From contig CAXHJY010000244.1 in NCBI GenBank assembly GCA_964016885.1, positions 1 through 64,000 of the forward strand: 64,000 nucleotides of DNA, read 5' to 3'. Below, in pieces: positions 5,854-63,835 of the stretch. Numbering within the stretch: the first letter of the stretch is position 1; every line of letters starts with the position of its first letter. The DNA comes from Eledone cirrhosa. Lineage: Eukaryota. Made by a program: the position numbers and the translations under genes. The notes beneath the pieces are model-generated. The model worked only from the letters and a program-made list of their open reading frames with translations, ran no database searches and had not been told where the DNA came from.

Positions 5854-6126
5854 AAGAATTGAAATACTAGAGTGTGTTGGAGTTAAACACCCTCTTCGAT
5901 ATTATAGAAATGACAGTAAAGGTATAGCTCAATGTAATTAACAGAGCCGAATAATTATGAAAATTTAATCTATGTACACTCCATATTCTTCTGAGTTTTC
6001 GGCTTGTATTGGCTGATAGTGCTTCTTATAGCTTTAATTGCCCTGATGAGTCCTTAATAGGACGAAACATTGTTGGCTAATAAAGACTTTTGATGTATTG
6101 AAGGCTTCTTTGGTTTATTTTCATAA
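5854..6126 (+). mobile_element. Penelope-like/retrozyme-type element between (TA)n runs with an inverted 5' segment and a hammerhead
   Basis: Left arm (..atagctcaatgtaattaacagagccgaataattatgaaaa) is the inverted continuation of the right end (ttttcataa) and is homologous to 20980-21030. Confidence 0.65.
6036..6081 (+). ncRNA. Minimal type I hammerhead ribozyme motif
   Basis: attgcc-CTGATGA-GTCC ttaata GGAC-GAAA-c att g-TT-ggc(t)aat: intact core, 4-bp stem II, GUU triplet. Confidence 0.75.
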
Positions 6127-6176
6127 ATATATATATATATATATATATATATATATATATATATATATATATATAT

Positions 6177-6233
6177 ATGAGATTCCTGATGACTTCTAAA
6201 GAATGAAACAGTTCTAGTCCTGTAGAATCTCAT
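6177..6233 (+). ncRNA. Type I hammerhead ribozyme motif
   Basis: atgagattc-CTGATGA-cttc taaa gaat-GAA-acag ttctagtc ctgt-A-gaatctcat: perfect 9-bp stem I, 4-bp stem III, GUA site; C.U mismatch at the base of stem II. Confidence 0.78.
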
Positions 6234-6388
6234 CAATATTAAAACTTTATACTCTGCTATGTATTGAGTACCTTACTTAATGTGGTTACCTCCGATTCAA
6301 CCCGGAATAACGTATATATATATATATGTATATATATGTGTGTGTGTGTGTGTGTGTGTGTGTGCGTGTGCGTGTGTGTGTGCGTGCG

Positions 6389-6475
6389 CGTTTCGGACAC
6401 TAGTCCTTCATCAGAAAATAGAATGAGAAATTAAAGAATAGAAAGATAGAAGAGTGAACAGTGACAGAAAGTAAA
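6389..6475 (-). ncRNA. Truncated hammerhead core in a copy of the 61070/61635 family
   Basis: Minus strand reads tttt-CTGATGA-a-GGAC tagt GTCC-GAAACG, then is cut by a (CA/CG)n run; upstream flank matches 61130-61180. Confidence 0.65.
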
Positions 6476-6638
6476 AGTAAATTCTAGAGAAAAAAGCCGT
6501 TCTCTTCGAGAACATCCCCTCCTTTCCCGTTCTTTTTCTTCTTTCTCTCTGTCTTTTTTCTCTATATCTCCCTATTTTTTCTTTCTTTTGTTTCCCTTTT
6601 TTTTATTATTGCCGTCATTATAATTCTAATTATTATTA

Positions 6639-6830
6639 GGGCGGTGGATTGGCAGTATCGGTAGAGCGTCGGACGCCATGCTTTACAGCATATAATTACG
6701 GCCCTTTACGGTCTGAGTTCAAATCCCGCCGAGGTTAACTTTGCCTTTCATCATTACGCGGGTCGATAAAATAAAGTACCAGTAATACACTGAGATAATT
6801 GCTGGCCTTGTGCCAAAAGTAGAAAAAATT
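6639..6830 (+). mobile_element. tRNA-derived SINE family A copy
   Basis: Full A/B box head and conserved body. Confidence 0.9.
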
Positions 6831-7067
6831 ATATGAGTAGAAAGATATTTATCAATTCTATGGCTTTTTTTTATATAACTGATTTGGTTATAATGTTATG
6901 AGATAAATTATTTAGTTCAAAACAAGAGATGTAATTACCTAATCTATCCTTTCAACAATTATATTTAATTAGGTATTATACGCGAAGAGGAAAATATTAA
7001 CTATTTGTGTAGCAATTATTATAAGGAAAATTTATGTATTATAGCATAGTTTATCAATATATATTAA

Positions 7068-7248
7068 ATTGGCAGTATCGGTAGAGAGTCGGACACCATG
7101 CTTTGAAGAATAGAGTTACGTCTCTTTATGATCTGAGTTCAAATCCCGCCGAGGTTAACTTTGCCTTTCATCCTTACGGGGTCGATAAAATAAAGTACCA
7201 GTAATGTATTGGATATTTGCTGGCCTTGTGCCAAAAATAGAAACAATT
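7068..7248 (+). mobile_element. tRNA-derived SINE family A copy
   Basis: Same head and body motifs. Confidence 0.9.
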
Positions 7249-7802
7249 AAATTAAATTTATTTATATACTAACTAAAGATAAGGTAGATGAAAAAGTTAT
7301 ATTAGTTTACTGATTTTGTCTATTCGTCTTAATTTTCTATGTAAACAAAAGATCGCTCCATAATTAAATAAAGAAGCTTTTCTTATTTAATTATTTATTA
7401 AGTTTAACTAAAAACTCTATGAAACGTTTTGGAAAATCTACGAAGACAAGAGCTAAATATTTCTGAACGTTTATTAATAATTAAATGTCTATTATAAATG
7501 ATATGAAGAATTTCTGTGGTACATAGGTCACAATCTTTAGATATGGAAGCATTTTGATAAGGCAAAGCATTAGAGAGTTTTTGCCAAGAAAAGGACTATT
7601 CGATATTATTATTTTTAAGTGATCAAATCTATTCAGCAAGGGCCGTAGTAAATCTTTTGCCTGCCCTCTTGAACGAATGGCGATGGTTGTACCATATATA
7701 TATATATATATATATATAATTATATACGAATCAAATGCAGAGTTAAAAACCCGAATTAAAACCCAGTAATTTATGATCTCAAAGTATAAAAACCGGGCTC
7801 TT

Positions 7803-8441
7803 TATAATATATAGAAATAAACACAGAAAGAAGTTTGTTTTGAATTACATGGGTTGAAAACCACTTTGGTGCAATGGATATAATCTATGAACAAACGGAA
7901 AATACATAATAACAGGAAAAGATGAATTAAAATGCACTAAATATTTCAATAACTCTTAACCCTTTAGCATTCACATTACTCTATATATACTATTGTATTT
8001 TCACAGTAAAGGTTTTACCTCACATAATATATCACATAACATTTACATTACTCTATATATACTATCGTATTTTCACGGTAAAGAATTTACCTCACATAAT
8101 ATCGAATCTATGAGATTTTGAAAGTATTTATTTTGAGAACAATACCTTAACATCAGTTTGAGTGACTAGTTACAGCCAGTTTCGACAGAAAAAGGTAGAG
8201 AATTCTGGCCGGTTTGGGCCGGTTTGAACACTAAAGGGTTAAACACCTGGGCAAACTACAGATAGAGTTTGTTTCGCCATAAACTTGTGTCAATTAACCC
8301 TGGGGCTTCTCAACAGGAGTTAGGATTCTATGAACAGCACACCTAGAGATAATTTAGGTAACTATATATCGCGGTGTATATAGTAAGAGAACCCATGTAA
8401 TTCTAAACACACTTCTTTGTGTGTTTATTTCTATGTATTAT
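7803..8441. mobile_element. Element with about 50-bp inverted ends, interrupted by a piggyBac-like MITE
   Basis: 7803-7853 (tagaaataaacacagaaagaagt..gaattacatgggtt) is the reverse complement of 8389-8441. Confidence 0.55.
7960..8238. mobile_element. piggyBac-like MITE
   Basis: TTAA-CCCTTTAGCATTCA ... TGAACACTAAAGGG-TTAA: TTAA target duplication and CCC/GGG termini; second copy ends at 39028. Confidence 0.85.
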
Positions 8442-61443: not shown

Positions 61444-61671
61444 GGGAGACATGATATGAAGGTTAAAAAACACTTGTGAATAGTGCAGTTTTAAATCAAC
61501 ATATGATATGTTGATATATATGTATGTATATATATATATATATATATATATATATATATATGTATATATATATATGTATATACATATATATATATATATA
61601 TATATGTATATATATATATGTATATATATATATACCGTCCGTCCCCTCAATCTATCTTATTTCTCATTCTT

Positions 61672-61709
61672 TCTTCTGATGAAGGACTAGCGGGTCCGAA
61701 ATGTTAAGA
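61672..61709 (+). ncRNA. Minimal hammerhead motif (host element about 61635-61795)
   Basis: tctt-CTGATGA-a-GGAC tagcgg GTCC-GAA-atgt-T-aaga. Confidence 0.68.
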
Positions 61710-62027
61710 CCCTCTTCCTGCTATATCAAACGTCAAACTAATATATTCTTTCCATATACTGTACCGATTGTGTTGTTATTTCTGTTTTCCTTTTACATAC
61801 ATACATACATACATACATACATACATACATACATATATAGAGAGAGAGAACATATTATACAAAATCACTGATGGGTAGATCCCAATCCTTGAGCAAGTCA
61901 CTTTATTTCACGTTGCTCCTTCTACCTGGAGTTGCGACCGATAGATAGTATTAGAAAAGCCAACGGAGACATTTCTTCCTCAGGTCCGATTTGACGAAAG
62001 TCTATCGACTGTCAATATATATATAAA

Positions 62028-62189
62028 CAGGTAAATTTCCGTTATAACGAATACCATTATAACAAATTTTTCAGTATAACGAAATTTTTTTCACGTTCGA
62101 TGTGTTAGGTCGATCTCGTTATAAAGAATTTTTCGTTACAACGAATTTTTTTAATACCCTATGAATTACTTTGTAACGGAATTTCATTG
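62028..62189. mobile_element. Tigger/pogo-like MITE
   Basis: caggtaaatttccgttataacg ... gtaacggaatttcattg-TA with internal cgttataacg repeats. Confidence 0.62.
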
Positions 62190-62227
62190 TATATATATAT
62201 TGTAATGTAGAATAACATGCTGCGCAG

Positions 62228-62370
62228 TATAGAGTTGCGTTCTGAGTTCAAATCCCGCTTTGCCTGAGGTTAGCTTTGTCTTTCATCCTTACGGGGTCGA
62301 TAAAATAAAGTACCAGTAATACACTGAGATAATTTCTGGCCTTGTGCCTAAAGTAGAAACAATTATTATT
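62228..62370 (+). mobile_element. tRNA-derived SINE family A copy, 5' truncated
   Basis: B box and conserved body. Confidence 0.85.
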
Positions 62371-62518
62371 ATTACTAGTAGTAGTAGTAGTAATAGTAGT
62401 AGTAGTAGTAGTACAGATTAAAAGTTTAAGCAAAGAAGCGGGATCTTCCGACATATTTTTAAAAGTTACGACAATATATATATATATATATATATATATA
62501 TATATATATATATATATG

Positions 62519-62952
62519 AAAACAGGGAGAAATAGACGATTATTAGGAAGAAACATTTCTTTTTTTTCCTTTTTTGTCTCTCTCTCTCTCTTTTCTGGGT
62601 TAGAAAATGATTAAAACGAAATGTTGTACTTTGTATGAAGTGTTAAAGTATTAGTTTATTTATTTATTATTTAACAATGGCATTTATTTATCTATTTATC
62701 TATTTATATATTTATCTATTTATATATTTATATATTAATTTATAGACAATAATTAAATATATAAATAGATAAATAGATAAATAAATGCCATTGTTAAATA
62801 ATAAATAAATCAACTAATACCTTAACACATCACACAAAGTAAAATATTTCGTTTTAATCATTTTCTAACCCAGAAAAACGAGAGAGAGAAACAAAAAAGG
62901 AAAAAAAGATATTTTTATTCTTCCTAATAATCGTCTATTTCTCCCTGTTTTT
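62519..62952. mobile_element. About 430-bp fold-back element between (TA)n runs
   Basis: About 190-bp arms (aaaacagggagaaatagacgattattaggaagaa... / ...ttcttcctaataatcgtctatttctccctgtttt). Confidence 0.85.
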
Positions 62953-63471
62953 ATATATATATATATATATATATCCTAACTCGTGTGCTTCCTCTCCACA
63001 TTTTATTATTATTATATATATATATATAAATATATATATATTAGAAAGTGAGGTTTTTTTTACAAAATGAATATATAAATATATATATATATATATATAT
63101 ATATACATACACATATATGTGTGTATGAGTGTGTATGTATAGTGCATATACATTTTTATGTATATATTTAAAGGATTATGTGTGGGTGTGTGAATATGTA
63201 GGTGTTCGTAGCTAGGTGCTCTATAGTGTTATTAGTACATGAACAATGAAATCGTGTCTTCATCAATCAGTTGTCTTCGGGCAATACGATTCTATACGAT
63301 GCTGCATATTCAGTTTGCAACAGTAATTTCAAGGAAAATCATTTGCGATGGGCTAGTTACCTGTCCATGGGGAGTTTTGCTTCTCATTATCCATGAATGA
63401 AAATGTGCAGAAGTGGTATATATATATTAGTGGTATAGATATATTATATGTGCAGAAGTGGTATATATATA

Positions 63472-63835
63472 TTAGAAAGTGAGGTTTTTTTACAAAATGA
63501 AAAATAACCGAGGTGTCCTACACGAATGAAAGTATAAAGAAAAAAAGATGAAATCGAAAATGCAACTGGAGTCTTATTTTTTTTTTAAATATATATATTT
63601 ATTTGGTTCCTTTACCGGTTTCGCAGTTCTTCTGCTTTTCAAAAGTAGAGTTGAGGTGGAGGGTCTGTGGTTTTTCTCACATCTGATGTGAGAAAAACCA
63701 CAGACCCTCCATCTCAACTCTACTTTTGAAAAGCAGAAGAACTGCGAAACCGGTAAAGGAACCAAATAAATATATATATATTTTTTTTAAATAAGACTGC
63801 AGTTGCATTTTCGATATCATCTTTTTTTCTTTATA
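63472..63835. mobile_element. Fold-back element family P, most complete copy, with two divergent U3-A8 hammerheads (63610-63645 -, 63723-63758 +)
   Basis: About 150-bp near-perfect arms centred on tctcacatctgatgtgaga. Confidence 0.88.

Follow-up and report, generated by a model that had tools for sequence, protein, structure and literature searches.

Hammerhead ribozyme motifs beside (TA)n tracts in Eledone cirrhosa, probable 3'-end fragments of Penelope-like elements and a 541-bp retrozyme

Results

Hammerhead motifs in a 64-kb window

We analysed 64,000 nucleotides of Eledone cirrhosa DNA (assembly GCA_964016885.1, contig CAXHJY010000244.1, positions 1 to 64,000 of the forward strand), referred to throughout as the window, in which short islands bordered by (TA)n microsatellite tracts carry hammerhead ribozyme motifs. 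A preliminary description, made from the sequence of the window, had named 14 such motifs, and both conserved core boxes are present at all 14 positions. With a strict type I descriptor the window yields 7 motifs, compared to an average of 0.015 and never more than 1 in 200 dinucleotide shuffles. A relaxed descriptor that permits a U3-A8 core as well raises the count to 12, where 60 shuffles give 0.37 (at most 3). The relaxed set comprises 11 of the 14 named motifs and one unnamed motif at 8542 on the minus strand; the three motifs that it misses (25309, 46789 and 61672) have two boxes each and a flawed helix. The motifs at 14602, 53814, 63610 and 63723 had been listed as CUGANGA like the others but read UUGAAAA, a U3-A8 swap, with a stem I of 3 bp, and they belong to a single family (F). 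As 63610 and 63723 are the two arms of one insertion, the hits in the window are not independent.

The motifs that pass the relaxed descriptor contain the 3-8 pair, GAAA, UH and stems I to III in type I order. Judged by sequence they are real type I hammerhead motifs, with putative cleavage. Compensatory changes are seen in six of the eight stem II pairs of family C and three of the seven stem I pairs of family A, in alignments whose rows were picked by a descriptor that itself demands pairing. The islands fall into about ten unrelated families, in line with the roughly 8-10 suggested before. Rfam gives no match in the window at the gathering score, and among the matches listed at E ≤ 10 (150 of 1030) all are to microRNA models; the proposal that these elements are missed by annotation holds for Rfam.

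Abundance and polarity towards (TA)n

Genome-wide numbers come from 117 evenly spaced 10-kb stretches (1.17 Mb of the 3.0-Gb genome), which are not a true random draw. This sample contains 82 strict motifs in 21 clusters, compared to 0-2 in each of five shuffles, and extrapolates to about 210,000 intact motifs in the genome (bootstrap 149,000-271,000). The density is close to the 7 strict motifs per 64 kb of the window, which is therefore not a special region. The proposed targeting of (TA)n is borne out and proves to be polar: 79 of the 82 motifs have a (TA)6+ tract in the 300 nt that follow the predicted cut site and 49 have one upstream, against a background of 16%. Other dinucleotide arrays are met first in very few cases (CA 3, TG 0, GA 0 and TC 1 of 82). 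Conversely, a 3' end of one of these families directly adjoins 225 of 954 TA tracts, a count in which the reference sequences may carry neighbouring elements. Family J, absent from the preliminary description, is the most abundant in the sample, with 49 arms in 1.17 Mb, and extrapolation puts several families at tens of thousands of arms each.

Links to coding Penelope-like elements

A search upstream of the islands for open reading frames (ORFs) with reverse transcriptase (RT) and GIY-YIG endonuclease domains, in extended relatives, linked six families to Penelope-like elements (PLEs), the origin that had been proposed. Families B, C, I and J lead to broken Hydra-type ORFs and families E and F to broken Neptune-type ORFs. 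RT is seen for B, C, F and I; for E only the endonuclease is seen, in one locus (L072), where E follows a Neptune-type endonuclease; J is linked by an upstream sequence that matches the 3' untranslated region (UTR) behind a Hydra-type endonuclease (locus L047). The arrangement, RT followed by a C-terminal GIY-YIG domain upstream of a hammerhead on the same strand, is that of endonuclease-containing (EN+) PLEs, as are the inverted 5'-truncated copy and the optional tail at one end. Pfam assigns no family to three PLE pieces, so the clade assignments rest on motifs.

Upstream of family I, RT and GIY-YIG are accompanied by DKT, RWR, CxCX5C, CxxC/CxH around E and N, and GLYRDD, with no CCHH; these are the features of the Hydra clade, the (TA)n target included, except that RWK reads RWR. 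In the window the end of the endonuclease of family I lies at 21236-21316, about 680 nt upstream of the decayed core at 21994, which contradicts the earlier statement that no ORF is attached. Family F forms the 3' end of a Neptune-type element that is nearly complete but broken and carries an inverted 5' arm; the element is recognized by ADKG, YLDD, a CxxxxCxxC linker and a GIY-YIG domain with a cysteine pair. The 3' UTR of F measures 1.0-1.4 kb, and 27 of 30 long copies keep the U3-A8 core. The Neptune motifs (DKG, CX2-5CxxC linker, GIY-YIG cysteine pair) are all present in F, while E is represented by its endonuclease; they do not set Nematis apart. In one family F UTR (L087:2684-3560), duplicated blocks with CCAAT boxes and GGCGCGAAA motifs lie upstream of the TATA box; the GGCGCGAAA motifs we take to be E2F-like.

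Because families B, C, E, F, I and J can be traced upstream into ORFs, we assign their islands as putative 3' pseudo-LTR (long terminal repeat) fragments, that is, truncated copies of coding elements. The suggestion that the islands are non-autonomous does not apply to these six families and survives for family D, described below. Family A, whose long copies reach about 445 bp, is non-autonomous or else represents a UTR cut short by an internal microsatellite. A search of RNA runs listed none containing family A, a result with no weight in either direction.

Several candidate assignments were rejected. Family A does not encode an endonuclease tail, as its majority reading has stops in all frames, nor is it a tandem retrozyme with its units spaced by a short TA stretch, as no exact match was found to its long end followed by 2-32 nt and its 5' end. 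A possible assignment of family E to the Hydra remnant at 7422-7685, as its 3' end, was dropped because of the position of E in L072. A compact J ribozyme pattern gave 37 matches, and most of the 15 inspected are junction accidents at palindrome centres or neighbouring elements; one of the 15 is a long J copy with its true core further upstream.

Two 3' ends, paired arms and 5' hot spots

The 3' ends of each family are of two kinds, long and short. A long end is united with a short one in 35 of the 36 head-to-head pairs that the evenly spaced sample holds for A, B, C, J and F. The palindromes of family B, analysed in the 20 of the 25 best B hits that have a standard centre, follow the same rule in 19 of 20. 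Variants shared by the two B arms are mirrored in 22 of 26 cases and private variants are confined to one arm in 24 of 25. The 3-nt asymmetric centre of these palindromes occurs in both orientations relative to the long arm, 14 and 5 times, although the query slightly favours the first. At 23318-23563 in the window, a short end of one family is united with a long end of another, which implies that two RNAs can be used.

The 5' ends are also clustered: 19 of 28 within 12 nt in family A, 9 of 20 within 16 nt in F and 35 of 37 within 31 nt in J, in which the short copies lack the 5' core box and hold only the 3' half of the hammerhead. None of 30 family A copies, retrieved with a query of the tail only, starts at the cleavage site, which rules out such starts for A and argues that the template is uncut RNA; 27 of them start in the 5' half of the ribozyme. 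Three long copies (of A1, A2 and F) have CCAAT and TATA boxes followed by C|A exactly 30 nt after the start of the TATA box (step at +31), and the A2 copy at 6177 in the window begins where long copies have this TATA +30 position. The hot spots of A and F thus suggest run-off of the RT at a putative transcription start.

Family D, a non-coding 541-bp unit

Family D differs from the families above in consisting of a non-coding unit of 541 bp. One locus carries four intact motifs at 541-bp spacing, with a GC content of 38-39% and a longest ATG frame of 26 codons, and the circular fold of the unit has a z of about -2.5. Head-to-tail non-coding repeats, a type I hammerhead in each unit and a GC content below 45% are the marks of a retrozyme; the unit length lies outside 150-450 bp, a reported range rather than a strict limit. 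The structure of D was examined in 17 loci (15 picked from the candidate list, one met earlier and the window copy). These hold only the circularly permuted unit. The 5' ends vary in phase, and most of the 3' ends lie either 178 or 267 nt beyond the predicted cut site and are followed by TA. Among 15 two-armed loci, 11 combine long and short ends, one has two short ends and three are unclear. We therefore class D, by structure, as a putative non-LTR retrozyme with a Penelope insertion signature. It is young: its 40 best-scored places, out of 2835 first-look candidates, are 99-100% identical over 281 nt, and only 1 of the 117 sampled stretches contains a relative. Of the three cut-to-cut units in L341:1071-2693, the two outer ones have three variants in common that set them apart from the middle one, a hint of a two-unit period. 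That D was moved by the same proteins as the PLEs is likely, and would amount to trans-mobilisation.

Features of the window

Table 1 Features of the window; family and parent-element assignments are putative and cut sites predicted
Feature	Positions	Strand	Details
Family J arm	5011-5141		third J arm
Family H island	5855..6126	+	core 6043, predicted cut after 6074
Family A (A2) short copy	6177..6312	+	core 6186, predicted cut after 6224, long 3' end
Family E remnant	6389..6431	-	core 6414; runs into (CA)n tract
Decayed Hydra-type GIY-YIG endonuclease remnant	7422..7685	-	tblastn 36% identity, E 5e-11
G-related hammerhead	8425..8550	-	core 8542; absent from the preliminary description
Family F head-to-head pair	14463..14802	.	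U3-A8 core 14634 on minus arm; long left, short right
Family I, 5'-truncated Hydra-type element	21236..22175	+	endonuclease C-terminus, 3' UTR, long-loop hammerhead core 21994
Family D retrozyme	22515..23100	-	1.08 units of 541-bp non-coding repeat, core 22760, predicted cut 22694, short 3' end
Family D inverted arm	23097..23285	+	long 3' end
Family M arm (endonuclease-linked in L245)	23318..23423	-	short end; head to head with A copy, no TA spacer
Family A (A1) short copy	23424..23563	+	core 23430, predicted cut after 23468, long 3' end
Family B single arm, 3' end of Hydra-type element	25239..25502	+	core 25317
Family C copy, 3' end of Hydra-type element	30113..30502	-	core 30318, long 3' end
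Family G head-to-head pair	43537..43752	.	ribozyme 3' half only
Two family J head-to-head pairs, 3' end of Hydra-type element	46065..46590	.	start in loop II, without 5' core box
Family G copy	46723..46915	+	core 46795; stem II decayed
Family F head-to-head pair	53644..53924	.	U3-A8 core 53817
Family E copy, 3' end of Neptune-type element	61075..61330	+	core 61182
Family B single arm	61316..61526	-	core 61435, short 3' end
Family E copy	61637..61835	+	core 61676
Family F head-to-head pair	63471..63835	.	U3-A8 cores 63642 minus, 63726 plus; long left, short right

The B arm at 25239..25502 starts at the hairpin that forms the centre of B palindromes, and the family C copy has a short fold-back at 30430-30502. 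Just upstream of the family I copy, at 20891-21065 and 21147-21215, lies a decayed hammerhead island with an inverted piece of its 3' end across a TA tract. Pieces of another TA-flanked family are found at 14830-15257, with a decayed core near 15023, and at 56246-56315. The TA-flanked palindromes at 59855-60023 and 62596-62942, in which no hammerhead core is seen, are probably head-to-head 3' tips of further families.

An intronless open frame of about 400 codons at 49594-50799 on the plus strand matches Pfam 7tm_1 (E 3e-21) and is a gene for a rhodopsin-family G-protein-coupled receptor. Long low-complexity or minisatellite arrays, which have no relation to the islands, occupy 645-4900, 9380-9860, 18830-19650 and 27690-28640. 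Copies of one abundant repeat, presumably SINE-like (short interspersed element), lie at 5160-5320, 6640-6830, 8673-8848, 29895-30065 and elsewhere, with no tie to TA ends.

Discussion

A proposed two-cDNA cycle

We are fairly confident that the islands are 3'-end fragments of Hydra-type and Neptune-type PLEs, joined by a 541-bp retrozyme likely moved by the same proteins, that their 3' ends lie at (TA)n, and that they arose by a cycle with two complementary DNAs (cDNAs) of the following kind. The GIY-YIG endonuclease of the element would cut both strands of a (TA)n tract, and each nick would prime RT on uncut RNA at one of two internal starts downstream of the ribozyme. One short-ended and one long-ended cDNA would result, usually from one RNA. 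The 3' ends of the cDNAs could be joined by short complementarity to give a head-to-head pair, with a central mismatch after annealing resolved either way, or one cDNA could be captured directly by the TA target as a single arm. A pseudo-LTR promoter would start the RNA just upstream of the ribozyme (A, F) or inside it (J), in which case RT would reach the RNA 5' end after 70-200 nt, and hammerhead-sized copies would be abundant as a consequence. The two 3' ends of each family match the two internal RT starts of an Anolis element of another clade, which in vitro cuts both strands and uses an uncut RNA template (PMC11167929).

A more comprehensive reading is put forward tentatively, as slightly short of an even prospect: two cDNAs are primed, one per strand of the cut (TA)n, at internal starts that differ but usually lie on one RNA; short run-off copies of promoter-proximal RNA make up most insertions; an active 541-nt circular retrozyme rides this machinery; and about a quarter of TA tracts carry such an end.

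Several observations weigh against the proposed origin and cycle. All the linked ORFs that were seen are broken, though no search aimed at an intact master was made. Family A has no ORF in 30 long copies, all of which stop at a TA tract with nothing shared beyond it; no ORF link was obtained for families G and H, of which the search yielded no long copies (H has 1995 first-look candidates); and no parent protein has been identified for D. Arms ending at (TA)6+ within 25 nt number only 244 of 471, again with references that may carry neighbouring elements. The TATA spacing comes from three copies of two families, the J hot spot lies 52-82 nt rather than 30 nt after the clearest TATA box, and the 5' ends of B and C are not tied to a TATA box. 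The selection of the alignment rows lessens the weight of the covariation. The three-way junction is the lowest-energy fold in none of eight folded motifs which, together with the 3-bp stem I of family F, implies that many motifs may not cleave. A short self-complementary stem III of the dimer type, present in 20 of 28 cluster representatives, also weighs against activity; for dimer-type minimal motifs a monomer fold without the junction is expected (PMC4209133).

Alternative explanations

In the model of PMC3846280, inverted pairs would instead form when one strand primes itself or snaps back. Junctions do often lie at small palindromes or hairpins, and the mirrored variants are compatible with a single template. 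Snap-back would, however, fix the orientation of the loop relative to the long arm, and both orientations are found; it also leaves unexplained why, in all but one of 36 pairs, the second arm stops at the other RT start, and the pair at 23318-23563 combines two families, one short and one long. We regard this explanation as rather unlikely.

About equally improbable, in our judgement, is the view that the 5' hot spots are sites of RT stalling or template switching at RNA structure and not transcription starts. The CCAAT box, the TATA box and C|A at +31 are common to A1, A2 and F, and the position of the hot spot relative to the ribozyme varies by family: it is at stem I in A, 40 and 78 nt upstream in F and B, respectively, and inside loop II in J. 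The coincidence of the A hot spot with the 5' strand of stem I, and the J hot spot outside the TATA +30 spacing, speak for stalling.

Less probable still is that most islands are dedicated non-autonomous families, SINE-like or retrozyme-like, amplifying from short masters. This holds for D, and family A, in which no ORF is seen and the 5' end is fixed in all 30 long copies, would fit it, as would a young B subfamily with an identical palindrome centre in 20 of the 25 best hits and the great excess of short over long copies. Six families run into coding elements, however, short A and F copies lack upstream promoter-like sequence, head-to-tail A arrays are absent from the exact-match search described above, and the B arms are rebuilt at each insertion rather than inherited. 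Finally, chance motifs in AT-rich, hairpin-rich DNA or palindrome assembly artefacts, to which the mostly non-ribozyme lowest-energy folds and the lack of Rfam hits might point, can be dismissed in view of the excess of motifs over shuffles, the strand polarity to TA, the compensatory changes, the asymmetric arm ends and the arm-private mutations.

The nearly constant head-to-head arrangement of one long and one short end likely records how the elements are copied into DNA. The origin of tandem and inverted PLE ends and the enzyme that moves animal retrozymes are both described as open questions (PMC8557442; 2026 preprint). The long+short rule, the mirrored arms and the two-way centre are countable genomic predictions for a two-cDNA mechanism, and since D is a young retrozyme with the same signature, both questions become directly testable in one genome. 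If the more comprehensive reading given above is true, this genome is a natural library of some 200,000 hammerheads and integration intermediates.

Comparison with known systems

The link between hammerheads and PLEs, the targeting of (TA)n, the U3-A8 core and the inverted pseudo-LTRs are already published, which limits the surprise of the present results. New here are the scale, the long+short pairing rule and family D; the start-site hot spots are also of specialist use. A literature search found no paper on hammerheads in octopus genomes or on a long+short pairing count, with subscription papers, Repbase and preprint supplements (species list) outside its coverage. An octopus repeat annotation lists Penelope families, and the word ribozyme is absent from the accessible main text (PMC13282606). 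Up to 120,000 hammerheads have been counted in axolotl, so the scale here is high and not unheard of.

Families B, C, I and J resemble the Hydra clade (PMC8557442) in the C-terminal GIY-YIG domain without CCHH, the CxCX5C linker, DKT, the pseudo-LTR hammerhead and insertion into (TA)n. They differ in that RWK reads RWR and in that about two dozen mostly cnidarian families are described there, compared to tens of thousands of arms in each of several families here by extrapolation; their placement is by motifs. Families E and F, as putative members represented in E by the endonuclease, share with the Neptune clade DKG, the zinc-finger motif of the linker, the GIY-YIG domain with two cysteines and the microsatellite association; the long 3' UTR of F and its prevalent U3-A8 core are differences.

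The minimal hammerheads of metazoan PLEs (PMC4209133) are likewise thousands of dispersed single motifs in heterogeneous families, with opposite-strand pairs 100-700 bp apart, an extra base before stem II and a palindromic stem III, and the U3-A8 variant was reported there in Schistosoma. The total extrapolated here exceeds the 2,000-9,000 given in that paper, and in several families here stem II contains long insertions or stem III is longer. The pairing rule and the TA polarity are not stated in its accessible text.

As in Anolis Poseidon in vitro (PMC11167929), two RT starts would define the optional tail and the template would be uncut RNA. Penelope of Adineta (PMC3846280) has a pseudo-LTR TATA box, palindromic inverted junctions, one-sided tails and solo pseudo-LTRs, as seen here; the promoter of Drosophila Penelope is TATA-less (PMC2377424). 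Tails are about 60-100 nt here and 30-40 nt in the Poseidon and Adineta systems. Solo pseudo-LTRs were attributed to recombination or deletion and inversions to self-priming in Adineta (PMC3846280), whereas the counts obtained here favour short cDNAs and the joining of two cDNAs.

Family D resembles the metazoan non-LTR retrozymes, which have been proposed to be PLE derivatives (PMC7229834; bioRxiv 10.64898/2026.07.22.740005), in being non-coding, of low GC content and head-to-tail, with one type I hammerhead per unit. It differs in its length of 541 bp, compared to 150-450 bp, and is known here from DNA. The partnership of retrozymes and PLEs has been argued from co-occurrence and sequence trees (bioRxiv 10.64898/2026.07.22.740005). 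In contrast to the known retrozymes, as far as they are described in these sources, D occurs dispersed in (TA)n, its 3' ends fall at two fixed positions and it has inverted arms; this is a direct mark of PLE-type integration.

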